DNA of 64,000 bases from Holosporaceae bacterium (GTDB lineage Bacteria > Pseudomonadota > Alphaproteobacteria > UBA3830): positions 327 through 64,326 of the forward strand of contig JAITQS010000011.1 in the NCBI GenBank assembly GCA_031288795.1, written 5' to 3'. The notes beneath the pieces were generated by a model. The model searched no databases, was not told the origin of the DNA, and saw only the letters and a program-made list of their open reading frames with translations. Both the position numbers and the translations under genes were made by a program. Below, piece by piece: positions 8,373-32,377 of this stretch. Numbering within the stretch: position 1 is the first letter of the stretch; the number at the start of each line of letters is the position of its first letter.

Positions 8373-8514
8373 GAGACTGTTGCCTAATGGATTTTTCTCG
8401 TCATCGATTTCGTCAAATCCGTTGCTCAGATCCTCAAGTACAGACAGTACACTGCGGTCTTGCGCTACGTTTTTCCTCGTTCTTGCAAGAAAAATCTCAT
8501 TATGCAACAGTCTC
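8373..8514 (-). repeat. palindromic MITE-like element, full-length copy A (reverse orientation)
   Basis: 142 bp. Termini GAGACTGTTGCCTAATGG...TTATGCAACAGTCTC. The interior is near-identical to copies B, E and H. Confidence 0.85.
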
Positions 8515-8548
8515 TAAAAAACAGCTAAAGCGCAGATTTCAAAAAACT

Positions 8549-10406: not shown

Positions 10407-10545
10407 GAAACTGCCTAATGAGATTTTTCTTGCAAGAACGAGGAAAAATGTAGCGCAAGACCGCAGTGTACTGCCTGTACATGAGGATCCGAGCAACGAA
10501 TTCGACGAAATCGACGGCGAGAAAAATCCATTAGGCAACAGTCTC
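10407..10545 (+). repeat. palindromic MITE-like element, full-length copy B
   Basis: It starts 3 nt after the phasin stop. It shares the private variant GGAAAAATGTAGCGC with copy C. Confidence 0.85.
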
Positions 10546-10581
10546 ATAATGTAATAGCCTCATATGGTTCATTACATTCAA

Positions 10582-11103
10582 CTATTGGAATTTCCCTTGT
10601 TTTTCTCCAGAAATTATTGGCTGTTTCCCTCGATTAAAACCGCTCTTCCCCAGTTCCTCCTTTATAGGGCAATCCAAATTTTGCGACGTTTCTTCTGAAA
10701 TTTCCGAATTACCGCAGCAATTGCTCCCGGAAGCAACTTGCGCCGCCAAAATTTCAATAATGCTCCGATTATTCACCTTGAATTTATCCAACAATTCCAT
10801 TTTATGTTCCACTATCTTTTTTTCCTGCGCCAACAAAACTGCCTCATGACAACAACAGAGACTTTTAGCCCCCTCACTTTTCAATATAGTTTCCCTATGA
10901 TGGCAACAATGATTCTGGGATAAATCTTTTATTTTATTTTTTAAAATAGCATCTGCAAGATCAGCCTCCAGCTCATTCATAATTCTTTGGATCTCCTCCA
11001 CTTCAGCCGCTTTCGGAATCAAAATGTTCAGCGCCGATGCAGAAATTCCGCCTAAAAATGACGCCAACACAATAATCATAATTTTTTTGCCCAGATTTGC
11101 CAT
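10582..11103 (-). CDS. hypothetical N-terminally anchored protein with Cys/His clusters
   Basis: 173 aa. TM/signal anchor IMIIVLASFLGGISASALNIL, a coiled-coil-like middle, and clusters HCCHH, CCCH and NCCGN. Its ATG directly follows the TAA of the upstream gene (TAAATG). Confidence 0.55.
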   Translation of the reverse strand: MANLGKKIMIIVLASFLGGISASALNILIPKAAEVEEIQRIMNELEADLADAILKNKIKDLSQNHCCHHRETILKSEGAKSLCCCHEAVLLAQEKKIVEHKMELLDKFKVNNRSIIEILAAQVASGSNCCGNSEISEETSQNLDCPIKEELGKSGFNRGKQPIISGEKQGKFQ

Positions 11104-13326
11104 TTAAAATTGCTCACTTGTTAATATATCATCCTCATATTTCGAGATATCTTTCTTCTTTGTTGGGGTGGACGTGCCGGTACCCACACCGCCCCTGCCG
11201 AACGAATCCCATGCTTTTGAGCCTCCTCCGGTGGTCCACACCACATCATTGCCCGCAGACGGTTTGCTTCCCTTGACAACGGCTTTCCCCATCCAATTGG
11301 AATTTGCCCGAGAATCAACCAAAACTGCCGATTGCTCAGTAATTTCAGCTGCAGATTTTTCTTCAGCAGATTTTTTCGCGACGGATGAAACCTGCTTTTT
11401 TTCAGACTCATCTAAAGATTCGCCTTCTAAAAAACCACCGTTATCCGCATCGGAATTATCTTCTTCTACTTTATTATTTTCCGCATTGGAATTGTCTTTT
11501 TCGTTTTTGTTTTCTTTTTTAGCGCCATCTTCGTTGCCGCCTTGATCTTCGGCAGATTTTTCATCATTTTTCTCCTGATCTGATTTTTCGTCGTCCTGGT
11601 CGTCGCCCTCCTGATCTGGTTTTTCGTCGTCCTGGTCGTCGCCTTCCCGATCTGATTTTTCGTCGTCCTGGTCGTCGTCTTCCTGATCTGGTTTTTCGTC
11701 GTCCTGGTCGTCGTCTTCCTGATCTGGTTTTTCGTCGTCCTGGTCGTCGTCTTCCTGATCTGATTTTTCGTCGTCCTGGTCGTCGTCTTCCCGATCTGAT
11801 TTTTCGTCGTCCTGATCGTCGTCTTCCCGATCTGATTTTTCGTCGTCCTGGTCGTCGTCTTCCCGATCTGATTTTTCGCCATCCCGATCGTCGTCTTCCC
11901 GATCTGATTTTTCGCCATCCCGATCGTCGTCTTCCCGATCTGATTTTTCGTCATCCCGATCGTCGTCTTCCCCACTGCTATTGAACCGTTCTCCGCTATC
12001 CTTATCGCGATCTGACCTTCTGTCGTCCCGATCATCCTCCTCCCGATCTGATCTTCTATCATCCCGGTCATCGTCCTCCCGGTCTGACCTTCTGTCGTCC
12101 CGATCGTCGTCTAACCCACTACTATTGAACCGTTCTTCGTTATCGTCCCCTCGATCTGATCTCCTGTCATCCCGATCGTCGTCTGATATGCTAATATTGA
12201 ACTGCGTTTCATCATTGCGATCTCTATCCGATCTTTCATCGCTGTCCTCGTTATTGTCGTATCGATTTTTATCAGATCTACCATTGTCCTCATAGTTGTC
12301 ATCATCTAGTCTTCCGTCGTCATCTCTGATGTCAAAGTGCTCTTCTTCTTTGCGCTGAACCTGCTCTTGAGGTTCCGGAACATTGGAAATATTTTGCACA
12401 TTGTTTTCGTGGGGTATCAACTCGATTTTGGGAGTACTCGCCGGCTCGCTTTTTCCAGCGTTCCCAGATTCAACCGGAGAGATATTCACCGATTCATCTT
12501 CCGCCGTAGCCGACGATTCATCTTCCGCCGTAGCCGACGATTCACCTACCGCCGTAGCCGACGATTCATCTGCTGCCGTAGCCGACGATTCATCTGCTGC
12601 CGTAGCCGGCGATTCATCTGCTGCCGTAGCCGACGATTCATCTACCGCCGTAGCCGACGATTCATCTTCCGCCGTAGCCGACGATTCATCTACCGCCGTA
12701 GCCGACGATTCATCTAGCGCGGTACTTGGCGGTTTATTTTCTTCAACAACTATCTCTTCTTCTTCCCAGTCAGGAGATATTCCAGGAGGGGCTTTTTTTT
12801 CCGGCTGCATTTCCAGCTCCCAGTTTGGATAATTCATCTCCGGAGAGAATTCTCCCCAATTTGGAAATGGCTTTTCGGAAGGCTTAGCTTTTACGGGGAA
12901 TGTATTTAGATCCCAATCCGGATAATTGGGTTTTGAAAAAGCTTCATCTTCCCAGGTCGGTGGATTTTTTTTGGGAGGTCGCTTTCTTCCGAGCGGTATA
13001 TTTAGATCCCAATCCGGATAGTTTGCTTTGGTTTTTTGGGGAAGATTGTCGTTACGTTCATGATCTTCCGGTGGCAATAGCAAAATTTCCTCCAGAAGTT
13101 TTTGATTTTCCACGAACAATCTATTGATTGTTTTTTTTTGCTCGTTGTTGTAGCCGTTGTCGTGGGTTAGATGCAACAGCAAGTTATGTCCGACCAGGGC
13201 GAGTTTATCTTTCGGATGTAGACTGTATATGTCGAAGCTCACTGCAGCGCATGTGGCTCCAATGCTTTTTAGAAGCAAGAATATGACAAAAAATGCGTAG
13301 TGCAACCTAAACCTCGGCTGATACAT
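11104..13326 (-). CDS. hyper-acidic tandem-repeat secreted protein
   Basis: 740 aa. Signal-like N-terminus (FFVIFLLLKSIGATCAAVS). Trp motifs NYPDWDLN (x2), NYPNWELE, FPNWGEF and SPDWEEEE. About 10 copies of DESSATA(V/E/A). Many 12-aa D/E/R/K/S units (DDDRDDRRSDRE, DREDDDQDDEKS). Gly-rich basic C-terminus. Confidence 0.7.
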   Translation of the reverse strand: MYQPRFRLHYAFFVIFLLLKSIGATCAAVSFDIYSLHPKDKLALVGHNLLLHLTHDNGYNNEQKKTINRLFVENQKLLEEILLLPPEDHERNDNLPQKTKANYPDWDLNIPLGRKRPPKKNPPTWEDEAFSKPNYPDWDLNTFPVKAKPSEKPFPNWGEFSPEMNYPNWELEMQPEKKAPPGISPDWEEEEIVVEENKPPSTALDESSATAVDESSATAEDESSATAVDESSATAADESPATAADESSATAADESSATAVGESSATAEDESSATAEDESVNISPVESGNAGKSEPASTPKIELIPHENNVQNISNVPEPQEQVQRKEEEHFDIRDDDGRLDDDNYEDNGRSDKNRYDNNEDSDERSDRDRNDETQFNISISDDDRDDRRSDRGDDNEERFNSSGLDDDRDDRRSDREDDDRDDRRSDREEDDRDDRRSDRDKDSGERFNSSGEDDDRDDEKSDREDDDRDGEKSDREDDDRDGEKSDREDDDQDDEKSDREDDDQDDEKSDREDDDQDDEKSDQEDDDQDDEKPDQEDDDQDDEKPDQEDDDQDDEKSDREGDDQDDEKPDQEGDDQDDEKSDQEKNDEKSAEDQGGNEDGAKKENKNEKDNSNAENNKVEEDNSDADNGGFLEGESLDESEKKQVSSVAKKSAEEKSAAEITEQSAVLVDSRANSNWMGKAVVKGSKPSAGNDVVWTTGGGSKAWDSFGRGGVGTGTSTPTKKKDISKYEDDILTSEQF
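11575..12190. repeat. 36-bp coding tandem repeats
   Basis: Unit CTGATCTGATTTTTCGTCGTCCTGGTCGTCGTCTTC, with 11 near-perfect copies from 11575. More diverged 36-bp units follow up to about 12190. The repeats give open frames in several phases. Confidence 0.85.
12491..12722. repeat. 24-bp coding tandem repeats
   Basis: Unit GATTCATCTTCCGCCGTAGCCGAC, with about 9.5 consecutive copies carrying single-base variants. Confidence 0.9.
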
Positions 13327-14275: not shown

Positions 14276-15175
14276 TTATCCTTGTATAAAATTGATGGTG
14301 ATTAAATTTGTATTTTGTGTATGTGTCAATCCGGTACTTTTATAAGGCGTAGAGGTACCGGTAGTTATGTCAGTTAATTTTATTTTACATAGTCCATTTT
14401 TTAGGTCATCGTACAGATTCGTTTTCTGATCTTCCGGGGAGTTTTCTAGACCGACGAATAACGTACCACTTTTCAGTATTTGCTTTGCAAAAGGGTTTAT
14501 TCCTTTGGTCATTAATGTTGTGATCCTACTAACTATTATCGATGTGGTTTTGGCATGCGGAGCCGTTTGGAAAACGCACAATTCTATACTTTTCGGATGT
14601 CCGCCATATTCATAAAATCCGCCGTAGGGATAAATTTTGTATGATGCTTTTTCGGGAGAATTTTTATCATATAAAGGACCACCAAGTGTAGAATTATATT
14701 TTTCCACTATGGGAGTTCGAAGCGTAGGAAAATTTTTTTCAAACAAAATATCATCTTTTTTTTCGAAATCCATAACATAATTATCAAAAGATTTATGGAA
14801 GAAAACGTTTTTTTCATTTTCCAGCAGATACGTGCCGGAGTTTTCAAAAATAACGACAACTTTTGCCCAGAAAGAATGGGGATTTTTCACATCAGAATCC
14901 CCGTGAATTATTGGAGATCCATATATATCATTTTTTCCAAGACTTTTGTCATTTTCTATACGTTCCACCAATATCGGTGATGTAATTTTTATGCCCTCAA
15001 GACGAGCATTTAGCCTAATATTTTCGGGCCAAGTGTCCGCTAATTTTACATGACAATCTCCGGATTCGGTTTCGAGCCAAATCGGCGATTTTATATTTTC
15101 TTCTGTATCCGGAGTATCAGTAAAATCGCGAATATATACGCTGGATATTGATTTTATTCCTCTTGATAAAAACAT
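14276..15175 (-). CDS. hypothetical protein, phage-cluster associated
   Basis: 299-aa intact ORF. AGAGGA Shine-Dalgarno sequence. It lies 15 nt downstream of the 584-aa ORF and 6 nt upstream of the hydrolase. No family recognised. Confidence 0.55.
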   Translation of the reverse strand: MFLSRGIKSISSVYIRDFTDTPDTEENIKSPIWLETESGDCHVKLADTWPENIRLNARLEGIKITSPILVERIENDKSLGKNDIYGSPIIHGDSDVKNPHSFWAKVVVIFENSGTYLLENEKNVFFHKSFDNYVMDFEKKDDILFEKNFPTLRTPIVEKYNSTLGGPLYDKNSPEKASYKIYPYGGFYEYGGHPKSIELCVFQTAPHAKTTSIIVSRITTLMTKGINPFAKQILKSGTLFVGLENSPEDQKTNLYDDLKNGLCKIKLTDITTGTSTPYKSTGLTHTQNTNLITINFIQG

Positions 15176-15190
15176 AATTTTCCTCTTTAT

Positions 15191-16945
15191 TTATACTAAA
15201 AAATCGGGGATAGGATGATTTTTCCTAATGGCCTTTGTGGTGCTTAGCGGATGTAGAACTACCTTTATTTTTGTGGGATATCTTCTTAATTCGGCCTTTA
15301 GTTCTGCTACGCTTTTTGCTCTAATTTTTGCCAGCTGCGCCTCCTGTTCTTCCGGAGAATTCTCAACCGAAATTTTGGTTACTATATCCTGAGAATTTAT
15401 TTTTTCCTCTTCGTTATTAATGGACAATTTTTGAAAATATTCGTTTATTTTTTCAGTAGAAATTTCCGCGAATCCACCTAGATTGCAGCAAATCGTAATG
15501 TTAAAAATTCGGTGATTGCAATCGGCGAAAAAGGCAGTTTTCGTGACTTTTCCCGAGATAGATCCACCGGAAAATCTGTCGTCAATTACGGTAATTTGAT
15601 CATTTAGAGTTACATTTATAAAATTTTTGGCATAGACATTAAAATTAAGCTCCACATATCGTGACGAGTATTTTATAAGTGCGATTGCCTTCTGGACCGC
15701 ATAGCGAATTGCATTTTTTCCGCGATCCGTAGCGAAAAAAGAAGATGCCGTTTCGTCCGGTAGCGCATCTGGTATTTTTTCCAGTAATCGCCATTTTTTT
15801 TCGTCGAATTTATCTTCCGCCACATGGGCCGCTAGACACTCGAAAATTTGTCCAGAATGAAGTACTTTTTCGCCGCGATTATAATCCCAAAAGCTGTGCC
15901 ATTTTCGCTGCGCTTTTGGCAATTGCAGTGGACCGAGTTTCAAATTAATATTTTTTTCTCGGCCACCATTAGATTTCGTATTTATAACTTTTATTGTTAT
16001 ATTCTCGTTTATTTTTTGTTTATGATGCCAATTTACAAGTATTTGCCCTTTGAAATAAAATTTTTTAAACCTCACAAACTTTTGGGGAGATATTTCATTT
16101 TTTTCAATAGCATACTCTGCAGACACCGGCGAAAAATTTTGAAAAAAGTGCCTGTTTTGGGTCGGATAAATTTCTTTTATTTTACTGCTTATTAGCTCAT
16201 ATCCGGTATTTTTGGAAAATTTGCAAAAATTTTCCATTGCTGTTCCGATGTTAGTATAAGAAGACACCACGGAATTTTTGAAATTGCTAGCAATCAGCGG
16301 ATATAAATTAATGCATCCGTAGGCATGCCGCAGCCAACTGGTTTCGATGCTTATGCTTATGCTTTTGTAGGGTTCCCGAAATAACCGCACTTTTAGAGAG
16401 TTTTGCATAATGTCACATTTTTTGATTTCAAAATTTTTTGCGCCATGATTGATGTCCGATAGCGACAATTTTCCATTTGTCATGTCCCAATAGAAAATTT
16501 TACAATCTCCCTCCAAAAAAACCGTTGGATTATTCATATCTTTAGTTGAAAAAAATAAATCGTCAAAAATAATCGGATGATCCGACAGTTTATGCTTATC
16601 GATATTTTTGTATTGTTCGTAATTTAGTTGGCAGAAGTTGTTCAATTGGTTTTGATAATCTTCCGGTTCGGAAATAAATTCCAATTTCAGACAAGAGTTT
16701 CCAAATCCGATGGGAAAAGATACCAATCTTCCGGAAAAAATTATTTCCACATTTTGGTCATCTTTTTGAACAGCGATTTTGGCATATTTTTTAGTTACCA
16801 ATGGTTCGGTTGTAGTCACAACGACTTTTGCCGAGGCAAATCCACATTCTCTATGAACGATTTCCAGAGATATTATTTTTGCATCGCCGCGCCAAGATTT
16901 TTTTTCTTCGTGAAAAGAAAAACACCAATCAAATATCAATTTCAT
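15191..16945 (-). CDS. hypothetical large protein, candidate tail/host-recognition component
   Basis: 584-aa intact ORF. GGAGA Shine-Dalgarno sequence. Internal motif KWHSFWDYNRGEKVLHSGQIFECLAAHVAEDKFDEKKW resembles small carbohydrate-binding (CBM5/12-like) modules found in phage tail proteins. Otherwise unrecognised. Confidence 0.55.
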   Translation of the reverse strand: MKLIFDWCFSFHEEKKSWRGDAKIISLEIVHRECGFASAKVVVTTTEPLVTKKYAKIAVQKDDQNVEIIFSGRLVSFPIGFGNSCLKLEFISEPEDYQNQLNNFCQLNYEQYKNIDKHKLSDHPIIFDDLFFSTKDMNNPTVFLEGDCKIFYWDMTNGKLSLSDINHGAKNFEIKKCDIMQNSLKVRLFREPYKSISISIETSWLRHAYGCINLYPLIASNFKNSVVSSYTNIGTAMENFCKFSKNTGYELISSKIKEIYPTQNRHFFQNFSPVSAEYAIEKNEISPQKFVRFKKFYFKGQILVNWHHKQKINENITIKVINTKSNGGREKNINLKLGPLQLPKAQRKWHSFWDYNRGEKVLHSGQIFECLAAHVAEDKFDEKKWRLLEKIPDALPDETASSFFATDRGKNAIRYAVQKAIALIKYSSRYVELNFNVYAKNFINVTLNDQITVIDDRFSGGSISGKVTKTAFFADCNHRIFNITICCNLGGFAEISTEKINEYFQKLSINNEEEKINSQDIVTKISVENSPEEQEAQLAKIRAKSVAELKAELRRYPTKIKVVLHPLSTTKAIRKNHPIPDFLV

Positions 16946-16998: not shown

Positions 16999-17895
16999 AT
17001 GTCTATTGCGTTCAACAAAAATTATTATCGCGCTATTTTCTTTTTATTGCTCATGATGTTGATTAGCTGCCTCAACGATGTCATAGCAAAATTTATTGGA
17101 AAGCGACTTGATTCTGTAGAAGTTATTTTCTTTAGATTTTTTTTCAGTTTCATAACTCTTTTACCATTTGTGGTTGTGCGCGGCGCGGCAATTTTCCAAA
17201 CGTCCAATTGGCGACTTAATGTTCTAAGGGGGATTTTTGGCGCCCTTAGTTTTTACCTCTATACCCATTCGCTGATGCGAATACACCTAGTTGAAATCGT
17301 GACAATTATGTGGACGATACCTTTATTTGTCGTTGTTCTTTCAATATTTTTTTTGAAAGAGCAAGTGAATATTATCAGGTGGATCTCCACACTGGTGGGT
17401 TTTTTCGGGCTCGCATTCATAATGTTATATGACAGCGGATCGTCATTTTCTTTCAAATTTGTATATATAATTCCGATTGCATCAGCGTTTCTTTTCGCAC
17501 TTCAGGACGTAATGGTAAAAAAAATGCTGGACACAGATGACCGCATTACCATGCTTTTGTATTTTGCCATTATAAGTAGCCTTCTAACATTTATTCCTGC
17601 GATTTTCGTCTGGAAAACTCCCACACTATTCGAATTATCCCTGCTATTATTGCTGGGATTTTTCGCCAACCTCATGCAATTTTTTATTTTCCGCGCGTTC
17701 GAAGCGGTAGATTTATCGGCGTTGGCTCCGTTCAGATACATAGAATTTTTATTATCCGCCTTTGTGGGGTTTATCTTTTTTAGAGAAATCGCCGGATTAA
17801 ATGTTCTAATTGGGGGCATAATTCTAGTTCCAAGCACATTATATTTGGCCTACAGCGAAAGAAGTGCCTCCCGTAAACGAGAGCGCAAAAAATAG
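16999..17895 (+). CDS. EamA/DMT-family transporter
   Basis: 298 aa with about 10 TM segments in two EamA-like halves. It is on the opposite strand inside the phage-like cluster. Confidence 0.8.
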   Translation: MSIAFNKNYYRAIFFLLLMMLISCLNDVIAKFIGKRLDSVEVIFFRFFFSFITLLPFVVVRGAAIFQTSNWRLNVLRGIFGALSFYLYTHSLMRIHLVEIVTIMWTIPLFVVVLSIFFLKEQVNIIRWISTLVGFFGLAFIMLYDSGSSFSFKFVYIIPIASAFLFALQDVMVKKMLDTDDRITMLLYFAIISSLLTFIPAIFVWKTPTLFELSLLLLLGFFANLMQFFIFRAFEAVDLSALAPFRYIEFLLSAFVGFIFFREIAGLNVLIGGIILVPSTLYLAYSERSASRKRERKK

Positions 17896-17902: not shown

Positions 17903-18499
17903 TTATACTTCTTCCAGAACAATTTTCCAGCTGCCATTCATGTTCCATTCGTTGGTTTCGAAGGAAAAGTCCACCACCGTCATGATTAACCACGGGCGAA
18001 AACTAACAAATATTTTTTCATTGTATTTTTTTAAAAGTTCCACTTCATTGCTGCCGTCATTAAAATTAAATTTTATGGAATCTCCGGCGGTATTGAGAAC
18101 ATTTATGGAGTCCTTAACAACCGGTCTTATGAGTCGTATTTTTTGTTGTCCCGCTTCAATGGATTGCCATAAATTTTGTATACATCCTACATTGATTTGG
18201 GATCCAATCCAAATGCTGTCTATGATCGGAAAATTTACGTCTCGACAAGATATGATACTTTTATATTTTTTATTTTCGGAAGCTTTTAAAAATAATAAAT
18301 CGCCGTTTAGGGATTTTTTGAATTCTCCGTTAGGAATGGGATGTAGTTCCTGAGTACAGTTTCGTGCACTTTCCGGAGGCAATCCTACAATACCAAGTAT
18401 TAAATTTGTTTCATTCATTTTAGTCCATCCATTCGGGCATTGTTGTTGGGGTCGTTCGGGAGACATATTCCAGATATTCGGCCAATTTATCCATTGCAT
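17903..18499 (-). CDS. hypothetical protein following the neck genes
   Basis: 198-aa intact ORF, 38 nt downstream of the terminator-like ORF. It sits where a major tail protein would be expected, but no tail-family motif is recognised. Confidence 0.5.
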   Translation of the reverse strand: MQWINWPNIWNMSPERPQQQCPNGWTKMNETNLILGIVGLPPESARNCTQELHPIPNGEFKKSLNGDLLFLKASENKKYKSIISCRDVNFPIIDSIWIGSQINVGCIQNLWQSIEAGQQKIRLIRPVVKDSINVLNTAGDSIKFNFNDGSNEVELLKKYNEKIFVSFRPWLIMTVVDFSFETNEWNMNGSWKIVLEEV

Positions 18500-18537
18500 T
18501 TTCTTCTTCTGAATTCATATTTTGTATAATTGCAGTA

Positions 18538-18930
18538 TTAGTCATCGCTTTCTCCATCTTCATATATAGCTTTCAATTTTAGTATGGCAATCATATTCAA
18601 TAGGAGCAAATTTTTTCGACTCTCGATGGAATCAATTTTTATTTTTGCGGATCCTATGGCGACATTTCCTTGGCTTAGCGTCAATTCCTGGGCGGTTATT
18701 TTGCTAATGGATTTCATAATTTTCATACTTTCCGAAGTTACACATTTGTCGTCCACGATACTTACGACGAATTCCACCCGAGACATTAAATTTTTTCCAT
18801 GAATAATATTTTTTAATTCGAATATTAGATACGGTGTTTTGCGAAGTTCGTCGGGCGGAGTTGACGGAAATATTGCTGCGCTCAATTCTTTTTTTATGGC
18901 ATTTATGATGCCAAAATCCCAAGGTAGCAT
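18538..18930 (-). CDS. tail-terminator-like protein (DUF3168/RcGTA g8-like), tentative
   Basis: 130 aa. Assigned from its position after the adaptor, its size and its N-terminal pattern (...IFPSTPPDELRKTPYLIFEL...). It starts 2 nt after the upstream stop. Confidence 0.45.
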   Translation of the reverse strand: MLPWDFGIINAIKKELSAAIFPSTPPDELRKTPYLIFELKNIIHGKNLMSRVEFVVSIVDDKCVTSESMKIMKSISKITAQELTLSQGNVAIGSAKIKIDSIESRKNLLLLNMIAILKLKAIYEDGESDD

Positions 18931-18932
18931 TT

Positions 18933-19235
18933 TTATTCTCCTTTTGTTATTTGTGCCGCATGAAACATAATGTAGTCGTTGGATGGATCCACAATGGGAA
19001 TTTGAGTAGGCATAAAATTTTTATCATCCATTGTAATTCTAAAATTGTTGGGAAAGTATTTTCTCCATTTTATAATAAAAAAGTATATGACTCTTCTGAC
19101 GGAAACATATTTTATGGAAGCTGAAGCCCACAATTCATTCCAGAGAATATATTCCGGAATCCAAACATTGTCGCTGGACAATTTTTGTTTAATAATTTCT
19201 ATTTTTATTTTTTTATTAAATAATTTTTTTGACAT
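18933..19235 (-). CDS. head-tail adaptor / head closure protein (RcGTA g7-like), tentative
   Basis: 100 aa. The pattern KIKIEI...W.P...LW...WASASIKY...Y.F.I.WR...RI is typical of SPP1/HK97-type head-tail joining proteins. Confidence 0.5.
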   Translation of the reverse strand: MSKKLFNKKIKIEIIKQKLSSDNVWIPEYILWNELWASASIKYVSVRRVIYFFIIKWRKYFPNNFRITMDDKNFMPTQIPIVDPSNDYIMFHAAQITKGE

Positions 19236-19245
19236 TTTTTTTCTC

Positions 19246-19848
19246 CTAAAAAACTCTCAGATTCAGAAATGGAGCAAGCAACTTCCGTACCCCACTGGAC
19301 ACAATGTCGCCGTCCAAACAAGAATATCTTTCTTGGTAGGCGCTAGCCATCATCATCAAATTCGCCAATTTTACGGGATACGGAATATTATCTGCATTCA
19401 GCACGATACCCGCTTCGTAAAGGATGGATATAATCTTCGATTTACTACGCTGCAATGATTTATCCAACGTAAGCAGTAAATAAAATTTCGATTTAGTTTT
19501 ATCTAAAACGTAGCATTGTTTTTCCACATCCGTTTCATTTACCGATACTTTTAAAATTTTTATGATGGGTGGTTTTGGCAATGGAATTTGCAAACTATTT
19601 CCTCTAACCATACATGGATAATTATCGTTGGGAGCGGCCACAATGCGAACATTGTCACTATGTATCGTATATTTCCATGTCTGCCGCGGCAGCGTTTTTT
19701 GTATAATAGCTTCAATTGCTTCGCGCGTAGATTTGATGAGCATTAATATAAGATCATCATCAAAATTATGGTCGATGTGAAGATAATTTTTTGCTTCTTT
19801 CAACGAAATTATTTCGCTTTTGGGACCTTCGACCAGACATAAATCCAT
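19246..19848 (-). CDS. gp6-like head-tail connector protein
   Basis: 200 aa. The N-terminal ISLKEAKNYLHIDHNFDDDLILMLIKSTREAIE is the classic gp6/Phage_connect_1 signature. Confidence 0.7.
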   Translation of the reverse strand: MDLCLVEGPKSEIISLKEAKNYLHIDHNFDDDLILMLIKSTREAIEAIIQKTLPRQTWKYTIHSDNVRIVAAPNDNYPCMVRGNSLQIPLPKPPIIKILKVSVNETDVEKQCYVLDKTKSKFYLLLTLDKSLQRSKSKIISILYEAGIVLNADNIPYPVKLANLMMMASAYQERYSCLDGDIVSSGVRKLLAPFLNLRVF

Positions 19849-19930
19849 TTTATTTCTCCTAATATTTTGGGTGGGGAATCATTATTTTTAGCGTCGCAGA
19901 TGTTTTCGCTGTACTCTTATTTTTTAGTGA

Positions 19931-21058
19931 CTAGTTGGCGGAAAATTTCAAAAGTTTTATGGCATCGAAGTCCACGACGGCGCCTCCGGTACGTTTGGTA
20001 GCATAAAATTCCACAAACGGCTTGGATGTATATGGATCCCGCAATATTTTTAATCCCTGCCTATCAATAATTTGGTATCCGGAATAAAAATCTCCAAATG
20101 CAATGGAAACGGACGCTTTTCCATTCACAAGGTTTGGCATATCATCGTCAATTACCACTGGATATCCCAGCAACATTGATGGAGTACATTCCGCCAGCGA
20201 TGGTTGCCACAAGCATATGCCATCTGAACTTTTTAATTTTCTAATTGCCGCAAGAGCAGAACGAGACATTAACCATTTGGCGTTTTTCACGTAGATTGGT
20301 TTCAGCGAACAAGTCATGTTCAGCAGAATATCCAGGGGATTATTGTCGTCCGAAAATTGTCCATCGGCGCCGCTGCAGAAGTGCTGCAATTTTCCAAATT
20401 CTCTGGTGGAAGATGCTTCGGAAGTGTAATCCAGGAATCCTTTTGGTTTATTGCTGCCGTTTCCATTTATGAAGGCGTGATTTTCGAGAGCGGCGATTTT
20501 TTCTGCAATTTTATTTATGAGCCATTCTTCGACATTTATCTGGGCGTCGTCCAGGAGCTGCTGACTTGCTTTCGGTTTTGCATAAATTTCGTAAACGGGA
20601 ATTTTAATTTTTTGTATTTCCGGAGAGTCGGTTTCGTCTCGGGAGGCGGACGTCTCGGACGCCCAGCCGGCTCCCGGACTTTTAGAATTCACCAACATAT
20701 CCATGGAATTTGTCGATATGGTAGTGGTTTTAGCAACGGACCGCATTGGTGACAAAAATTTTAATCTATTTCCTATTTGCGTTGCGATTTTTATTGGCAC
20801 AAAGTGTCCGCCTTCGTCTCCATTTACGCCGTTTAGCGATTTTTTTGCAAATGATCCGATTCCTTTGCGAATATAATCGGAAAAATCACATTTTTGATCG
20901 CAGTTGTTTTCTAAATTTTCTGATAGTGGTAAAGACATATTTTTTTCTCCTTTTATCATTTTTGTTTTTGGTGCATTTAATTCTTTTTCGTTATTTTCCA
21001 ATAGGGCTTCGACGTTATGATTTAATTCTTCGATGGCGTTTTGAAAATCTATGTTCAT
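19931..21058 (-). CDS. HK97-family major capsid protein
   Basis: 375 aa. A coiled N-terminal delta-like region is followed by GGHFVPIKIATQI, GAGWASE, LLDDAQINVEEWL, ENHAFINGNGSNKPKGFL. Confidence 0.85.
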   Translation of the reverse strand: MNIDFQNAIEELNHNVEALLENNEKELNAPKTKMIKGEKNMSLPLSENLENNCDQKCDFSDYIRKGIGSFAKKSLNGVNGDEGGHFVPIKIATQIGNRLKFLSPMRSVAKTTTISTNSMDMLVNSKSPGAGWASETSASRDETDSPEIQKIKIPVYEIYAKPKASQQLLDDAQINVEEWLINKIAEKIAALENHAFINGNGSNKPKGFLDYTSEASSTREFGKLQHFCSGADGQFSDDNNPLDILLNMTCSLKPIYVKNAKWLMSRSALAAIRKLKSSDGICLWQPSLAECTPSMLLGYPVVIDDDMPNLVNGKASVSIAFGDFYSGYQIIDRQGLKILRDPYTSKPFVEFYATKRTGGAVVDFDAIKLLKFSAN

Positions 21059-21696
21059 GATATTTTTCCTTTCGTGGCGTGATTTATTTTTTGGGAGATA
21101 TTTTTTATGAGTTCTAGGTATTTTTGCATGTTATCCTCGGCGGGGACGCAATTTGCTTTTATGTCGCTAACAACGGCTTTTTCGCAGGCCGGAAACGTCA
21201 CAATAGACACTTCCAGCAATTCGATGTTTGTCAGATGATGCACGTTGTTGTCGAAATATTCGTCCTTAATTTTATAGCCGATAGAAAATCCGTCGAGGGC
21301 TTTATTTTTTAGTAGGGCGTAGACTTCTTTTGCTTTTGGAATTTCAAACAGCAGTCGCGCTTTTATAAAAAGACCGTAATCGTCTTCGTGGATGTCTGTT
21401 ATGACTCCGATGGGAAAATTTCCATCATGTTGCCAGAGTAGTTTCGGTTTTTTTCCGTTTTTGAATTCGCGAATAGCGTTTGCGAATGCTCCTTTTTCGA
21501 CGCTGTCGCCGTATCCGTCGATTACTCGAAAAACACTGGCATAGCCGGAGATTTCTCCATTTTCCTCCAGGGATTTTAAGAGACAGTTGCCCTGTGGATC
21601 TTTTCTACCATTAGCTTCATTGGATGGTATATGGGGGGTTAAAAATTTCATACTATTGGTTCCTATTTTTATTCCTATTTTTGTATTTCTATTCAT
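21055..21696 (-). CDS. HK97-family prohead protease
   Basis: 213 aa. Motifs: GYASVFRVIDGYGDSVEKGAFANAI, LLWQHD, GFSIGYK, LLEVSIVTFPACEKA. It has 4-nt overlaps with both neighbours. Confidence 0.85.
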   Translation of the reverse strand: MNRNTKIGIKIGTNSMKFLTPHIPSNEANGRKDPQGNCLLKSLEENGEISGYASVFRVIDGYGDSVEKGAFANAIREFKNGKKPKLLWQHDGNFPIGVITDIHEDDYGLFIKARLLFEIPKAKEVYALLKNKALDGFSIGYKIKDEYFDNNVHHLTNIELLEVSIVTFPACEKAVVSDIKANCVPAEDNMQKYLELIKNISQKINHATKGKIS

Positions 21697-22838
21697 TGAT
21701 TTATTTTTTCTTCATCGGATTCGTTCAGGGGAGGAAAACCAAGGATTTCTCTTTTTTCGTTGGTAGTCAGGAAATTGGCGTTGGATATTTTTTGCCACAG
21801 CATTTCCCGTTTTGAGGTAATGGCATGGACAGCCTCCAGATCGAAAATTATTTCCACCGATGTATTAAATTTTTTCGAAAACCAGTTGCTTAATTCCAGT
21901 CGAATTAATTCTCCCAGAGGCAGGATTGTGTCTTCCCATAGGTGCAGACGCGCCTCCCTATAACTGCCCAAGCTAGAGTTTTCATGTAGTTCCAGCATGG
22001 GGGGAGGCACTCCGAGCGCCAAAGCAATTTCGCGGGAACTGATATCTTTTCCGCTGCCAAAATCCAAATCTTTGGGAGAAAATCCCATTTCTTTCCATTC
22101 GAAACATCCTTCCAGCACCATCATTTTTCCGGCGTTGGAGGATCCGGCGTAGGCATTTTTTATATCTTCCCGCAGTTGTTCTCGTTGTTCGTCGGTAAGA
22201 TTTTCCGTACCATTTTTTACCATCAGACATCCGGAAGGGCGCCCACCATTTTGCAATATCGCAAGATTATGATCCGAAATGGCGTTATGCTGGTCGATGG
22301 ATCTGGACGCCACCTGCAGCGGACTCAATCCGTACCAATCATTGAGCGGATTGAATAATTTCAAGTGCAAAACATCGTCCCGGGAAAGAATAAAGGTCGA
22401 GGTATCAACTTCGTACTGGTAGGAGTCGACCGCCGTCTTGGATGCGTTCGGCACAACCCGTACCCGATCCGTCCGAAGGCAATTCAAGTCTCCGTTTTCT
22501 CCCAAATAAACAAACGCATTTCCGGAAATTAGCAGATAATTCACCAGGGTCTCGAAAAACATTCCCCGCGACTGATTTTCGTTCGGACGACTCAGCAGCT
22601 TTGTTAGCTTCCAATTCTCCGATTTGTCGTCACGATTTTTTGCGCTCATGGGTATCGAGGCAATTCCCCGAGATATTAAACTAATCGCCCGAAAAGCAAT
22701 GGCGTTTTTTTGAAAGCCGTTTTCGGAAATAGCGTCGTAGCGGCATGGCGTCCACTGGGGATCGCCTATGTTTTGGTAAGAAAAGAAAACATTGGAAGTC
22801 TTTTTCCCCATACCAAAATGCTTCAATAAATTTCGCAT
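21693..22838 (-). CDS. HK97-family phage portal protein
   Basis: 381 aa. Motifs: LSRPNENQSRGMFFETLVNYLLISGNAFVYL, YQYEV, NPLNDWYGLSPL. These are typical of the HK97 portal family. Confidence 0.85.
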   Translation of the reverse strand: MRNLLKHFGMGKKTSNVFFSYQNIGDPQWTPCRYDAISENGFQKNAIAFRAISLISRGIASIPMSAKNRDDKSENWKLTKLLSRPNENQSRGMFFETLVNYLLISGNAFVYLGENGDLNCLRTDRVRVVPNASKTAVDSYQYEVDTSTFILSRDDVLHLKLFNPLNDWYGLSPLQVASRSIDQHNAISDHNLAILQNGGRPSGCLMVKNGTENLTDEQREQLREDIKNAYAGSSNAGKMMVLEGCFEWKEMGFSPKDLDFGSGKDISSREIALALGVPPPMLELHENSSLGSYREARLHLWEDTILPLGELIRLELSNWFSKKFNTSVEIIFDLEAVHAITSKREMLWQKISNANFLTTNEKREILGFPPLNESDEEKINQ

Positions 22839-23077
22839 TTTCGTCTCCCTCTAGAATTTAATTATGTTTTATTGAATATTAATATGATCCTATGTTTTTT
22901 TATATAACGCAAGCACTATCTGAAATCTCTATATTTTTCAAGGCGGTAACTGCGTTTTTTGCTATAAAATAATTATCATTAGATCATTAAAAATAATATT
23001 ATTTTATTTTTAATATTGGGGAATTTTGTCGCGCTGTTGAATCAACGACTCCTAGAAAAGCGACCGACACCAGATTC

Positions 23078-23178
23078 GAGACTGTTGCCTAATGAGATTT
23101 TTCTTGCAAGAACGAGGAAAAATGTAGCGCAAGACCGCAGCGTACTAGCTGCACATGAGGATCCGAGCAACGGATTTG
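23078..23178 (+). repeat. palindromic MITE-like element, copy C (right arm missing)
   Basis: The left terminus and about 100 bp of interior are conserved. Similarity ends after GAGCAACGGATTTG. It shares GGAAAAATGTAGCGC with copy B. Confidence 0.75.
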
Positions 23179-23212
23179 CTCAAGACTTTGCGAGTCAAAG
23201 TTCAGGAATTTT

Positions 23213-24232
23213 TTAGCTCAGCAATAGGTGAGAAGCATCCAGCATACGATTGGAGAATCCCCATTCGTTGTCATACCAAGCCACCATATGGGCCATATCT
23301 CCGGCGATGACGGTGGTGAGCGGCATATCCACCACGGCGCTGAGCGGATTATGGTTGAAATCGGACGAAACAAGACTTTCGTTGGTATATCCCAAAATTC
23401 CTTTCAGAACATTTTCCGCATAGCAGACAACGGCATCGTTCAGCTCATTGGCGGTTGTTTTTCGCAGTGTCTGAAATGTGAAATCCACAACGGAAACATT
23501 AGACGTTGGCACTCTTATGGACAATCCGGAAATTTTACCTTTTAATTCCGGAAATATTTTTTCGATGGCCTTGGTGGCTCCCGTTGATGTAGGAATCATG
23601 TTGAGAGCGGCCGCTCGGGTGCGGCGCAGGTCCGGGTGATCGGCGTCTATGAGCCTTTGATCACCAGTATACGAGTGCACCGTAGTGGCAAAACCAGAGG
23701 CAATGCCAACATTCTCGTGAATCGCCTTCACAAGTGGCGCCAGACAGTTTGTGGTACAAGAGGCGTTGGAAATAATGACATCGTTAATTTTGTCCAGCGT
23801 ACCATCATTAACGCCGTATACTAAGGTGCAATCGACATCACTCGCCGGACACGAAATCAGGACCTTTCGGGCACCGGCATTCAGATGCTCCTGACACGCT
23901 GTCCTCGATTTGAACACTCCGGAGCACTCCAGCACTAAATCTATGCCAAATTCACTCCAGGGAAGATGCTGCGGAAACTTTTCCGAGGTATAGGTGATTC
24001 TTTTTCCGTCCACCGAAAATAATGTCTCGGATATTTTTTCGACGCTGTGTAAAAATGGTCCGTGAACGGAGTCATATTTCAGAAGATGCACCGCCGTATC
24101 GATGTTAAGCAGGTCATTTATGGCAACAATTTCGAAATTGTAATCACGCTTGGATTCAAAAAACGCCCTAAGTATCAATCTTCCAATTCTTCCAAATCCA
24201 TTTATGGCTATTTTCATTGATTTTTTTTTCAA
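23213..24232 (-). CDS. gap: glyceraldehyde-3-phosphate dehydrogenase
   Basis: Motifs: INGFGRIGR, SNASCTTNCLAP, WYDNEWGFSNR. Confidence 0.95.
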   Translation of the reverse strand: MKKKSMKIAINGFGRIGRLILRAFFESKRDYNFEIVAINDLLNIDTAVHLLKYDSVHGPFLHSVEKISETLFSVDGKRITYTSEKFPQHLPWSEFGIDLVLECSGVFKSRTACQEHLNAGARKVLISCPASDVDCTLVYGVNDGTLDKINDVIISNASCTTNCLAPLVKAIHENVGIASGFATTVHSYTGDQRLIDADHPDLRRTRAAALNMIPTSTGATKAIEKIFPELKGKISGLSIRVPTSNVSVVDFTFQTLRKTTANELNDAVVCYAENVLKGILGYTNESLVSSDFNHNPLSAVVDMPLTTVIAGDMAHMVAWYDNEWGFSNRMLDASHLLLS

Positions 24233-26295: not shown

Positions 26296-27468
26296 TTAAT
26301 TGCGAAAAGCATCGGTTATATTTTTTCCTACACCGTCCAGTTCACGAATAAATTCACTACATACGTCTTCGAGGTTTTGCAAAAAACTTTTCAGCCTGCT
26401 GGCTTCAATGGTTGGCCCACACCAGATTCTCAGATGCGGTTTCGTTAGAATATGTCCTCTGAAGTCAAATCCGATTTTTTTTAGCTCGCAGAATCTGACA
26501 ATTTTTTCCAAAAACTCCCATTTGTCCGTTTCCGGTAATTTTCGATACTTTTCCGAGGTTAGATCCAGGCAAGCAACGTGATGGGCGCGATATTTTTCGT
26601 CCACCAAAAATTTGCAACAGTAGCTGCGAGAAATCCAGTCGCAGACCACGGCATAATTATCCTCCACTCGCTGTATGAGAGCCGCCAAACCGCCGATTTG
26701 TTCCGCCCACAGCAGTGCATTGCGAAAATCTTCGATGCAGAGCATGGACGGAGTATTGATGGTATATCCCTTAAAAATACCGGAATTTACTTTTTTGTCA
26801 TCGGCGATGCGAAAAATTCTCGGTATGGGCCAGGGCGGCTGATGCGATTTTAATCGTGCCATCGCTCTTGGACTAAGAACAATTGTTCCCAATCCAGCTT
26901 CTCCTCCCAGTCCTTTTTGCCATGAAAACGCCGTAGCGTCCAACCTATTCCAGTCGAAATCGAACATAAACGCGGCGGAGGCGGCGTCGCAGATGGTAAG
27001 TCCTTTGCGGTCGGCGGATATCCAGTCGGTATTGCGGAATGACGTTCCGGAAGTAGTTGATGTCCAGCAGAACACAACGTCTCGGTCGAAATTTATGTCC
27101 CGGACGTCCGCCATTTTGGGAAAATCCTCTCTGAAAACACGGACATCCTGCAATTTCAGCTCTTCGACGATGTCTCTTTCCCAATGCCTACTGAAAACGC
27201 AATGGGAAATAATATCGATCCCATTGGCGCCCAACAGAGACCACAGCAATGTTTCCACAGCTCCTGTACTGGAAGCTCCCACAATTCCAACGTGATAATC
27301 ATCGGGAATTCTCAATATTTTTCGCTGGAGATCGAGAACTTCTTCCAGCAGTGCTAATCCGTCCACTGATCGGTGTGATCGTCCAACTAAAATGCCATTC
27401 GGCGATTCCCATTGGGGATACTTCGCGCATGGTCCCGAAGAAAAACTCACATTTTTCCATTTTTGCAT
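26296..27468 (-). CDS. serC: phosphoserine aminotransferase (alpha-proteobacterial/archaeal type)
   Basis: 390 aa. Motifs: FSSGPCAK, GRSHRS, ADRKGLTICDAASAAF, FSWQKGLGGE, INTPSMLCIED, LRIWCGPT. Confidence 0.85.
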   Translation of the reverse strand: MQKWKNVSFSSGPCAKYPQWESPNGILVGRSHRSVDGLALLEEVLDLQRKILRIPDDYHVGIVGASSTGAVETLLWSLLGANGIDIISHCVFSRHWERDIVEELKLQDVRVFREDFPKMADVRDINFDRDVVFCWTSTTSGTSFRNTDWISADRKGLTICDAASAAFMFDFDWNRLDATAFSWQKGLGGEAGLGTIVLSPRAMARLKSHQPPWPIPRIFRIADDKKVNSGIFKGYTINTPSMLCIEDFRNALLWAEQIGGLAALIQRVEDNYAVVCDWISRSYCCKFLVDEKYRAHHVACLDLTSEKYRKLPETDKWEFLEKIVRFCELKKIGFDFRGHILTKPHLRIWCGPTIEASRLKSFLQNLEDVCSEFIRELDGVGKNITDAFRN

Positions 27469-27959
27469 ATGCCCTCCTCTAATAAAATAATTCTATGATT
27501 CAAAAAGTCCAAGGCTCCTTGCAAAATATACACAGCTGCGGTTTTGTCTACAAGTTGTTTACGTCTTTTTCTGGATAAATCTGCTTCAATCATGATTTTG
27601 TCTACGACGCTGGTGGAGAATCTTTCATCCCATCTTGCAATGCCAACGTCCGTGTGTTTTGACAATTTTTCGATAAAATTTTCAACTTTTTCGCATTGCT
27701 TGCAGGCAAGACCATCCATTTGCAGTGGCCATCCACAGATGATTAAGCCAACATTATACGATTTTAGATGTCGCAAAATTCCAAAAAAATCACCGTTGTT
27801 TCCCTTTCGTGCAATAGTCCCGACGGAACTGGCAATTTTGTTCCGACGATCTGATACTGCCATGCCAATGGTCTTGCTTCCCACATCAAGTCCCATAAAA
27901 ACAGACTCCCGCCTATTCAGCTCATTTATTTTTATAGTCTCAAGCGGAATAAAATTCAT
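27447..27959 (-). CDS. ruvX: Holliday junction resolvase-like protein RuvX/YqgF
   Basis: Motif GLDVGSKTIGMAVSD. The ATG at 27959 gives 170 aa. The track ORF extends to 28136 only by reading through repeat copy D. Confidence 0.85.
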   Translation of the reverse strand: MNFIPLETIKINELNRRESVFMGLDVGSKTIGMAVSDRRNKIASSVGTIARKGNNGDFFGILRHLKSYNVGLIICGWPLQMDGLACKQCEKVENFIEKLSKHTDVGIARWDERFSTSVVDKIMIEADLSRKRRKQLVDKTAAVYILQGALDFLNHRIILLEEGICKNGKM

Positions 27960-28011
27960 TGCATTAACTTTCTTTTTAAGAAAACCATTCAAAATATTAT
28001 AGGTAATAAAT

Positions 28012-28107
28012 AGTTGCATAATGAGATATTTTTTGCAAGAACGAAGCTGAACAAGCTCTGAATCCCGCGAAGTTAATTGCGAAAAAAATCCATTGGGTAA
28101 CAGTCTC
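28012..28107 (+). repeat. palindromic element, short variant copy D
   Basis: TAGTTGCATAATGAGATATTTTTTGCAAGAACGAAGC...GAAAAAAATCCATTGGGTAACAGTCTC. About 96 bp with an internal deletion. Confidence 0.6.
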
Positions 28108-28126
28108 TGAAAGTAAGGGTATAACA

Positions 28127-28381
28127 ATGTTATCAAAACAGTCTTTGGATATATTGATAGATCTCGTCGAAATAAAGCTCAGCGCCATCATGGTAATTGA
28201 CGGTGAAGACCTGAAGGAAGTAAGAAAGTTGAAGCTTTGCCGAAATGAATTGCTAACGTCCCGCAAATTCTACACCAAGAACTTGACCATGTTGCAAGGA
28301 ACTTCGGACTCATATATGCCGTCCTACAGCCATGACCAAACTTCCTTCACCTCCAATGATTTTTTAGAAAAACATATCTAA
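28127..28381 (+). CDS. hypothetical small protein (doubtful)
   Basis: 84-aa ORF in the ruvX-prmA gap. No recognisable motif and no clear Shine-Dalgarno sequence. Confidence 0.25.
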   Translation: MLSKQSLDILIDLVEIKLSAIMVIDGEDLKEVRKLKLCRNELLTSRKFYTKNLTMLQGTSDSYMPSYSHDQTSFTSNDFLEKHI

Positions 28382-30158: not shown

Positions 30159-30187
30159 TTGACAAAACACGAAATACACTTTATACT
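30159..30187 (+). promoter_or_regulatory. consensus sigma70-type promoter
   Basis: TTGACA, a 17-nt spacer, then TATACT. It lies about 30 nt upstream of the ATG at 30216. AAGGA Shine-Dalgarno sequence at about 30203. Confidence 0.55.
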
Positions 30188-30215
30188 AATTGAGGTTAAA
30201 AAAAAGGATAAAAAA

Positions 30216-32246: not shown

Positions 32247-32377
32247 GAGACTGCCTAATGAGATTTTTCCCGCAATAACGAGGAAAAACGTAGCGCAAGA
32301 CCGCCGTGTACTACCTACCCGTACATGATGATCTTGACGAAGTCGATGGCGAGAAAAAGCCATTAGGCAACAGTCTC
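32247..32377 (+). repeat. palindromic MITE-like element, full-length copy E
   Basis: It starts 5 nt after the nadK stop. Termini GAGACTGCCTAATGAG...CCATTAGGCAACAGTCTC. Confidence 0.85.

Follow-up and report, generated by a model that had tools for sequence, protein, structure and literature searches.

Among gene transfer agents (GTAs), that of Rhodobacter capsulatus (RcGTA) is encoded by a chromosomal cluster that holds terminase genes (g1/g2) at its 5' end and then the genes for portal, protease, capsid, adaptor, stopper, and terminator, without genes for replication or integration. The structure of RcGTA was reportedly described by Bardy et al. in 2020 (PDB 6TBA, 6TOA, and 6TE9). Reduced clusters are also found in endosymbionts. 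George et al. (2022, Genome Biol Evol, PMC9254644) described in Holosporaceae a single syntenic cluster that encodes capsid and portal complexes with no identifiable tail. The large terminase is encoded away from that cluster, and the ratio of nonsynonymous to synonymous substitution rates (dN/dS) lies below 1, with 0.02-0.6 for the head domains. Only head and portal components were detected in most Holosporaceae, and it was proposed that the uncharacterized genes behind the adaptor could encode divergent tail proteins (PMC9254644). The cluster was interpreted there as that of a domesticated particle. A literature search found no later paper on Holosporaceae particle clusters. It has been open since 2022 whether the 'GTAs' of endosymbionts are tail-less shells or have tails that are too divergent to be recognized, and it is this question that decides whether delivery to another cell is possible.

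Here, we focus on a particle locus in a Holosporaceae bacterium, found in a 64,000-nucleotide (nt) stretch (positions 327 to 64,326 of contig JAITQS010000011.1, assembly GCA_031288795.1), which is called the window below. The metagenome-assembled genome (MAG) belongs to a termite-gut/rumen clade of Holosporaceae and was apparently not part of the sample of George et al. Window coordinates are used throughout, and the particle genes are all on the minus strand unless marked (+). The locus runs past position 17903, across the gene for an EamA-family transporter on the opposite strand, down to about 13367, and is organized as two operons (Table 1). It probably encodes a domesticated particle that derives from a siphophage, a GTA-like 'viriform' of Holosporales endosymbionts, and is vertically inherited on their chromosome. 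The core idea of a domesticated, reduced particle is not new, since it was published by George et al. in 2022. What is new here is the true extent of the locus and the identity of the downstream genes. These were reported by George et al. as unknown for most Holosporaceae and are assigned here as stopper, terminator, distal tail protein (Dit), hub, and hydrolase, with a split by EamA and an additional open reading frame (ORF) of 47 amino acids (aa).

The locus fits the class described by George et al. in Holosporaceae and Rickettsiales and comes from the same bacterial family, Holosporaceae: a portal-protease-capsid-adaptor cluster is present, a tail tube is undetected, the terminase is non-adjacent, and the genes are under purifying selection. 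It is a genuine and well-preserved member of this class, for which the tail-less reading is to be corrected to a tube-less but, by prediction, tip-bearing one. For Holosporaceae, the analysis points to something in between: the tube and the ruler have been lost, and the tip, consisting of Dit, a hub with a glycan-binding insert, and a wall hydrolase, is kept under selection.

Table 1. Predicted features of the particle locus, with their positions in the window and the evidence for each assignment.
Feature	Position	Strand	Evidence or content
Upstream boundary	22839..23223		AT-rich spacer with portal ribosome-binding site, then ~145-nt interspersed repeat copy abutting gap
Operon 1	22838 to 17903	-	Portal, maturation protease, HK97 capsid, adaptor, stopper, terminator, 47-aa peptide, Dit
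Portal, 381 aa	21693..22838	-	PF04860 7e-75, full-length; phrog_12 2e-78
Prohead serine protease, S78 family, 213 aa	21055..21696	-	Peptidase_S78 PF04586 4.4e-30; phrog_80 2.7e-45; 4-nt overlap with portal gene
HK97-fold major capsid protein, 375 aa	19931..21058	-	PF05065 2.5e-79 over residues 83-372
Head-tail adaptor, gp6 / RcGTA g6 class, 200 aa	19246..19848	-	TIGR02215 3.6e-15 (above cutoff); Phage_connect_1 7.3e-6; phrog_442 head-tail adaptor 1.2e-13
Putative stopper / head-completion protein, g7 class, 100 aa	18933..19235	-	Family profile and syntenic homologue; dN/dS 0.20
Putative tail terminator / tail completion protein, DUF3168 class, 130 aa	18538..18930	-	Distant syntenic homologues; dN/dS 0.05
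Conserved 47-aa ORF, acidic, ending ...LAEYLEYVSRTTPTTMPEWMD	18420..18563	-	Found by translating the 119-nt terminator-Dit spacer
Predicted Dit, tail-tube fold, 171 aa	17903..18418	-	AlphaFold2 model, Foldseek, synteny in viral contigs; dN/dS 0.09
EamA/DMT-family transporter	16999..17895	+	PF00892 1.4e-26; phrog_18638 3.6e-46; dN/dS 0.13
Operon 2	16945 to 13367	-	Divergent from EamA; hub with carbohydrate-binding insert, 299-aa protein, SleB-type hydrolase, membrane protein
Predicted baseplate hub / tail-associated protein, gp27-VgrG type, 584 aa	15191..16945	-	AlphaFold2, Foldseek, and synteny; dN/dS 0.12
CBM5/12-like carbohydrate-binding insert in hub, residues ~349-378	15812..15901	-	PF02839 1.2e-3
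Lineage-specific 299-aa protein	14276..15175	-	Syntenic in at least 15 loci; dN/dS 0.20
SleB-type cell-wall hydrolase, 136 aa	13859..14269	-	PF07486 6.3e-16; phrog_938 endolysin 3.2e-19; syntenic in 22 loci; dN/dS 0.14
Membrane protein, 160 aa	13367..13849	-	Two C-terminal hydrophobic helices; phrog_1544 (function unknown) 4e-5

A first-pass annotation of the window had reported six ORFs from portal to terminator as intact and free of frameshifts. Reading of the ORFs bears out their coordinates and their spacing, with 4-nt ATGA overlaps at 21693-21696 and 21055-21058 and gaps of 82, 10, and 2 nt, and no frameshift is seen in these six or in the other particle genes. The identities proposed for the six are supported, with differing strength. 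Direct profile matches leave little doubt about the portal, the S78 protease, the HK97 capsid, and the gp6-like adaptor. The capsid protein has an N-terminal extension of ~80 aa that precedes the Pfam capsid domain, and the adaptor taken alone did not match the RcGTA adaptor in a PDB search. In contrast to these four, the 100-aa and 130-aa ORFs have, like the 198-aa ORF that follows them, no direct match in Pfam, PHROGs, or NCBIfam, and weak support comes at the family level. The profile of the 100-aa family (A6) finds PDB 2kz4, a 'putative head-tail adaptor', at 1.3e-5, and the syntenic homologue in locus L037 matches Phage_HCP at 5.8e-5. Four of 24 members of the 130-aa family match PF11367 (Tail_completion_gp17, the former DUF3168) with values up to 1.1e-5, and the Holosporaceae subfamily aligns with the distant subfamily at an hhalign E of 3.3e-4. 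Together with size and position, these profiles are weak but consistent indications that the two ORFs may encode the stopper and the terminator, respectively.

The same annotation had closed the module at the neck and regarded the 198-aa ORF behind it as unplaceable. This view has to be revised, as the ORF is predicted to encode a Dit of 171 aa, and the putative hub, hydrolase, and membrane protein follow it in conserved synteny. The corrected start of Dit is most likely Met28 (18418), as judged from an alignment of 32 homologues (A1), in which it is the start used by 27 of 31. The 198-aa reading exists only in the window, L009, L023, and L061, in which the Dit frame stays open through the small upstream ORF because of a 1-nt difference in frame. 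What looks like a conserved N-terminal extension (W..IW.ICPE..Q.C.NGW) is the +1-frame shadow of that small ORF and no real domain.

The Dit has no Pfam or PHROG family, and a sequence search of the PDB with the family found no match. An AlphaFold2 model based on 59 database homologues reaches a predicted local distance difference test (pLDDT) score of 87.6. Foldseek matches this model to tube-fold neck, tail-tube, and Dit proteins with E values of 1.5e-5 to ~1e-2, among them the neck proteins of phage 812, the tail tubes of YSD1 and Chi, tube/baseplate proteins of the phages R4C and 80alpha, a chain of 134 aa from the neck of RcGTA (6toa_G), and a ~204-aa chain of the DT57C (T5-like) baseplate, which is presumably its Dit, the counterpart of T5 pb9. 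In BFVD, the model matches major tail or structural proteins.

Tube, Dit, and terminator proteins are not separable by fold, and therefore it is the synteny in viral contigs that singles out Dit. The Dit family profile retrieved 46 IMG/VR contigs, and hidden Markov models (HMMs) built from the Holosporales alignments find a Dit-like ORF of about 142-157 aa in 44 of them (E 1e-15 to 1e-33). A hub-like ORF comes directly after it in 34 of the 44 (E 1e-30 to 1e-59). Immediately in front of the Dit-like ORF, most of the 44 have the end of a large ORF (about 500-2100 aa), which in one case partially matches proteins annotated as tape measures. The standard order in siphophages is tape measure, Dit, and Tal. 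Based on its tail-tube fold in the model and the position of its homologues in viral contigs between a tape-measure-sized ORF and the hub, the 171-aa protein is predicted to be the distal tail protein. Another candidate role, that of a P2 gpU-type terminator of a myophage, was ruled out: none of the ten viral contigs that were mapped has a sheath-sized gene upstream, and in at least one contig (L080) two small overlapping ORFs directly precede the tape-measure-sized ORF.

The siphophage-like contigs of IMG/VR (L070-L113) thus carry homologous Dit-like (27-38% identity) and hub-like proteins in the same order as the window. They differ in that their Dit-hub pair follows the ORF of 500-2100 aa, whereas in the window the pair comes after the terminator and the 47-aa ORF, with EamA between its two members. 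The portals of these contigs share only ~25% identity with that of the window. Three further 'viral' contigs, L068, L069, and L072 (UViG_3300028797_005954, 3300047994_000542, and 3300008093_000902), have the Holosporales chromosomal arrangement, with homologues from protease and capsid through stopper and terminator to the Dit-like gene, a portal gene in L068 and L069, and EamA in L068. These are probably fragments of endosymbiont chromosomes filed as viruses.

The hub is likewise placed by structure. Beyond the carbohydrate-binding insert, it has no sequence-level match in Pfam, PHROGs, NCBIfam, or the PDB, and none in the phage collection. A scan of IMG/VR with its profile and pattern gave no locus, and the hub homologues in viral contigs were found by HMM in contigs fetched via Dit. 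The AlphaFold2 model (66 homologues) has a pLDDT of 87.2 and a predicted template modelling score (pTM) of 0.76, and its 49 Foldseek matches in the PDB at E<=1e-3 are all central hub or spike proteins. The matches include AlgoCIS (1.6e-11), PVC (1.1e-9), and MuSo2/Mu gp44 (1e-7 to 1e-8), and further the AFP spike, VgrG1, T4 gp27, the pyocin R2 hub, T5 pb3, and the tail tips of Bxb1 and 80alpha. A confident model with a gp27-like multi-domain fold, together with a gene position beside Dit in viral contigs, leads us to predict that the 584-aa protein is a baseplate hub of gp27/VgrG type. PF02839, the family of the carbohydrate-binding module (CBM) insert, is found in 9 of 24 members of the hub family (best 1.2e-5), and the hub profile finds chitin-binding domains in the PDB at 2e-3. 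Holosporaceae hubs carry the insert, and the Paracaedibacteraceae-like homologues lack it.

Between terminator and Dit there is only the 47-aa ORF. It overlaps the end of the terminator gene and terminates 1 nt short of the Dit start codon. About 30 related loci have a homologue of 29-62 aa in this slot, and dN/dS against the closest relative (L001) is 0.057. The homologues share the motif [DE]xLxEYLExxxR..P.W[MY]x*, that is, a helix LxEYLE..R, about 8 residues, and a terminal P-x-W-[MY]. In phages, this slot is held by the tape measure gene, and those tape measures end in ...GRKPGWY, so that a P-x-W-[YM] ending is common to the small ORF and the phage tape measures. Comparison of the 47-aa ORF with the C-termini of phage tape measures is not significant (hhalign E 0.25 in global and 0.09 in local alignment over 6 columns), and hmmsearch with its profile finds no match among tape-measure-like ORFs. 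Position and motif give a hint, as a hypothesis only, that the ORF could be a vestigial tape measure.

Tail tube, chaperone, and full-length tape measure genes are not found at the locus, and the related loci likewise have nothing but the small ORF between terminator and Dit. The first-pass annotation was correct on this point; the conclusion that a tail is absent is not supported, as Dit and hub indicate a tail tip. Sheath, tube, and wedge genes are not found nearby. The annotation's description of the region in front of the portal is accurate as well: 239 nt of AT-rich DNA and a repeat copy (23075-23223) are followed by gap (23213-24232) and tkt, and no terminase precedes the portal. A tblastn search with a phage large terminase (TerL) gives no match to the window or to any of 63 related loci, no terminase domain is seen in the large ORFs of the window, and there is none within 10 kb of the cluster in the related loci. 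The scanned ORFs of the 64-kb window contain no integrase, replication, or terminase domains. The remainder of the window is ordinary chromosome (thrS, lnt, recA, mutS, recJ, ruvX, typA, feoB, transporters, and histidine kinases), and the cluster is contiguous with gap and tkt on one side and with the genes for a secreted-repeat protein, a phasin, and thrS on the other.

The relatives of the locus were collected by a capsid-based scan with one genome per species, which gave the 63 loci, and the window proteins were compared with these by tblastn. Nearly all are from Holosporaceae/Holosporales MAGs of termite guts and rumen, in addition to Paracaedibacteraceae and unclassified Alphaproteobacteria. 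The conserved order is portal, protease, capsid, adaptor, o100 (the 100-aa ORF), o130 (the 130-aa ORF), o198 (the Dit ORF), EamA on the opposite strand, o584 (the hub), o299 (the 299-aa ORF), the hydrolase, and o160 (the membrane protein). This full order, including EamA, is kept in about 22 loci, among them lineages with a capsid identity of only ~40%, and is thus common to the order Holosporales. Wherever the flank is long enough, head genes, Dit, and hub occur together, and more than 20 MAGs from independent assemblies have the same truncated gene set, in some cases on contigs of 175-274 kb.

The closest relative, L001, is collinear with the window from 23045 to 12904 at 85% nt identity, and the collinearity stops beside the repeat copy. 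Against L001, dN/dS is 0.05-0.20 for all 12 genes including EamA, with dS of 0.38-0.79; the values against L002 are similar, but saturated. The purifying selection on all 12 genes, the intact ORFs, the order kept to ~40% capsid identity, and the housekeeping flanks agree with the earlier proposal of domestication rather than decay. Tblastn searches of 50,697 phage genomes with Dit and hub gave no match, which argues against a recent prophage; a Dit homologue from a viral contig likewise found none. Taken together, the sequence comparisons point to a long-resident, selected element and not to a recent or decaying prophage.

In the remaining part of operon 2, the o299 family has only 40 representatives among 1.84 billion proteins and matches nothing in Pfam, PHROGs, NCBIfam, or the PDB. 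When it is aligned with distant homologues at the corresponding position, 8 columns remain invariant, and the protein is possibly a tail-tip or receptor-binding accessory, as a conserved partner of the hub operon. The SleB-type hydrolase may be either an endolysin or a tail-associated lysin, judging from its family. The o160 protein has no Pfam family and PHROG matches only to function-unknown groups. It has a near-invariant motif, LPGExVGIxSTIAGIFGACLKDAYSFEFGSSRGSK, within a stretch of about 40 residues, and 21 columns of its alignment (A11) do not vary even between lineages with a capsid identity of only ~38%. Its place in the operon would suit a holin, with a conservation that is atypical for holins. 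A second group of Holosporales MAGs (L045-L063) has a lone capsid gene of RcGTA/HK97 type, ~320 aa long, which aligns only from residue ~71-87 of the window capsid (examples are L050 9740-11447, L058 6053-7713, and L045 9956-12854). Portal, protease, adaptor, Dit, and hub are missing within the flanks examined, and an o160 homologue is adjacent or within about 2 kb.

Wherever the flank is long enough, also at ~40% capsid identity, EamA separates the Dit-like from the hub-like gene, and it stays put in L025, L028, L037, and L040, where other genes are inserted around it. It is an ancient insertion and probably not a component of the particle. A second EamA gene is found elsewhere in the window, at 33645-34505 (+).

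The locus behaves like that of a GTA-type domesticated particle, and descent from the ancestor of RcGTA is not established. Homologues of the RcGTA g3 portal, g4 protease, and g5 capsid are present, and proteins of bona fide phages are equally similar. The portal and capsid have their best PDB sequence matches in RcGTA, though the PDB is sparse: the portal matches Rcc01684 at 5.6e-69, and the capsid matches Rcc01687 at 1.8e-76 with 43% identity. Phage portals match the window portal comparably, at 205-246 bits; for capsid and portal together, the bona fide phages of the collection reach 205-269 bits, comparable with the RcGTA matches. Capsid identity to the phages Cd, P27, ppBeUSDA76-1, and MW462191 is 41-43%. 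A g6 homologue is clear and those of g7 and g8 are indicated by weak profile matches; the g6-g7-g8 order is found, and it is not specific to GTAs. The gene order had earlier been taken as diagnostic of RcGTA-type clusters. This is not supported, because the Bradyrhizobium phage ppBeUSDA76-1 has the same head-neck order, with a terminase beside its portal. A neighbour-joining tree of 27 capsids, which is distance-based, has only one GTA reference, and thus does not settle deep ancestry, groups RcGTA with four phages and a Micavibrio-like group (bootstrap 100) and leaves the Holosporales outside.

Further differences from RcGTA lie outside the head. Where RcGTA has its terminase genes, the window has gap and tkt, and the RcGTA tube (g9), chaperones (g10/g10.1), and tape measure (g11) are without counterparts at the locus. 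Pfam and NCBIfam scans of the window proteins and of 24-28 members of each family did not find g12 (DUF2460), g13 (DUF2163/BR0599), g14 (NlpC/P60), or g15 (GTA TIM-barrel / Phage-tail_3). The Dit and hub of the window belong to other sequence families than those of RcGTA, and the roles appear to be filled by Dit, hub, and SleB-type hydrolase; the 50 best structural matches of the hub do not include the RcGTA baseplate. The locus has no megatron, and its lysis-type genes are contiguous with it, unlike in RcGTA. GTA-Hunter reported no RcGTA-like clusters in the related orders that it lists (Rickettsiales, Rhodospirillales, and Paracaedibacterales). HK97-like temperate siphophages such as ppBeUSDA76-1 and Azospirillum phage Cd are complete with terminase, tail tube, tape measure, and lysogeny and replication modules. 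It follows as a caution that clusters are not to be called RcGTA-type on gene order and head similarity alone.

Based on these assignments, it appears that the particle could be built in the following way. The capsid would assemble on the portal and be matured by the protease. Six copies of Dit and three of the hub may then sit directly on the neck of adaptor, stopper, and terminator and close it, giving a stub tail without a tube. Dit could cap the terminator; its ring would have the same fold as the tube ring that a terminator normally caps. The CBM-like insert of the hub, together with the hydrolase, would allow binding and local digestion of a glycan or peptidoglycan surface, and hydrolase and membrane protein may also release particles by lysis. 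As a terminase at a separate locus is reported for Holosporaceae (PMC9254644), DNA packaging and gene transfer are plausible. The locus provides a testable particle model, a gene list for proteomics and cryo-electron tomography, and profiles (alignments A3 and A2) with which other Holosporales genomes can be re-annotated.

Several points weigh against a domesticated particle with a stub tail. The two operons are parted by an unrelated gene on the opposite strand, and their co-expression is assumed. No particles were seen by transmission electron microscopy in more than 850 endosymbiont cells (PMC9254644). The o160 protein is far more conserved than is usual for holins, the 299-aa and 160-aa proteins are without assigned fold or function, and the putative stopper and terminator depend on weak profile matches. 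Tube, tape measure, and terminase could also be encoded elsewhere in the MAG, in which case the tail would be no stub. There is also a narrower version of the proposal, which is doubtful. It holds that the siphophage was domesticated independently and is no descendant of RcGTA, that the 'stub-tailed' particle has its terminator docked on Dit-hub without a tube, and that the 47-aa ORF is a shrunken tape measure, a ruler of zero length. If this is true, the lone capsid and the ultra-conserved membrane protein of the second Holosporales group would point to a capsid-membrane function and not to classical gene transfer.

As a rival explanation, the tail-less head-neck particle of the first-pass annotation would need the six genes only, as a capsid-like container, and would make the downstream genes unrelated neighbours. 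The lack of a tube or tape measure gene at the locus, the head and portal components that alone were seen by George et al. in most Holosporaceae (PMC9254644), and the further reduction evident in the lone-capsid group would all agree with this. Nevertheless, we regard it as unlikely, because the next gene has the tube fold and is Dit by viral-contig synteny, the obligate phage partner of Dit, the hub, is kept in every lineage, and both are as strongly constrained as the capsid (dN/dS 0.09 and 0.12). It is improbable to a similar degree that two independent systems are adjacent, namely a reduced GTA head-neck module and a separate hub/hydrolase/membrane module that serves, for example, in envelope remodelling or as a spike-based effector device. 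Dit and hub are adjacent partners in 34 viral contigs and here flank EamA, so that the split would run through one module; sheath, tube, and wedge genes are lacking nearby, and head genes, Dit, and hub stay together wherever the flank is long enough. Such a division would, on the other hand, explain the opposite-strand EamA and the need of the hub operon for its own promoter, the contractile-injection-system spikes as the best structural matches of the hub, and the occurrence of the membrane protein beside lone capsids without hub or Dit.

The incomplete gene set, with no terminase, tube, tape measure, integrase, or replication genes in 64 kb, could be expected of a decaying or cryptic prophage remnant without present function. 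Intact ORFs, dN/dS of 0.05-0.20 at dS of about 0.5, an identical order down to 40% capsid identity, and a genome that is streamlined and otherwise full of housekeeping genes make this very unlikely. Least probable is an ordinary inducible prophage with its missing genes on the far side of a break in the assembly. The same truncated set recurs across the independently assembled MAGs, and gap/tkt and the genes for secreted-repeat protein, phasin, and thrS are contiguous with the cluster on either side; in favour of a break, the window comes from a 67-kb MAG contig, and MAG assemblies can be chimeric.

The window has a number of other features beside the particle locus. Directly downstream of operon 2 lies the gene for a 740-aa protein (11104-13326, -), whose N-terminus resembles a signal sequence and which contains long acidic tandem repeats of low complexity (a 36-nt unit repeated 15 times and a 24-nt unit repeated 10 times), followed by a Cys-rich ORF of 173 aa (10582-11103, -). 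Among the related loci, tblastn finds the 740-aa protein conserved in none but L001 and, for a short stretch, L002. It is probably a secreted or surface protein and no part of the particle. The possibility that it is the tape measure was ruled out by the signal-like N-terminus, the low-complexity D/E/S repeats, and this narrow conservation.

The repeat in front of the portal is one of several intergenic copies of ~145 nt, which occur in both orientations, are 75-93% alike, and resemble miniature inverted-repeat transposable elements or repetitive extragenic palindromes. Copies are found at 8371-8515, 10407-10549, 23075-23223, 32247-32382, 44772-44845, and 60875-61021, and shorter ones at 3189, 28013, and 54396. 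In the relative L002, a copy lies between the capsid and adaptor genes. A scan for promoters and terminators gave counts at chance level.

The reduced genome keeps ruvX, recA, mutS, and recJ all in this one window (27447-28136, 32611-33624, 38133-40763, and 46513-48210), and thus homologous recombination of incoming DNA would be possible in a recipient. Finally, an ORF of 353 aa at 30159-31220 (+), which has no Pfam or PHROG match, contains three tandem 75-nt repeats (76-77% alike) at 30474-30698.

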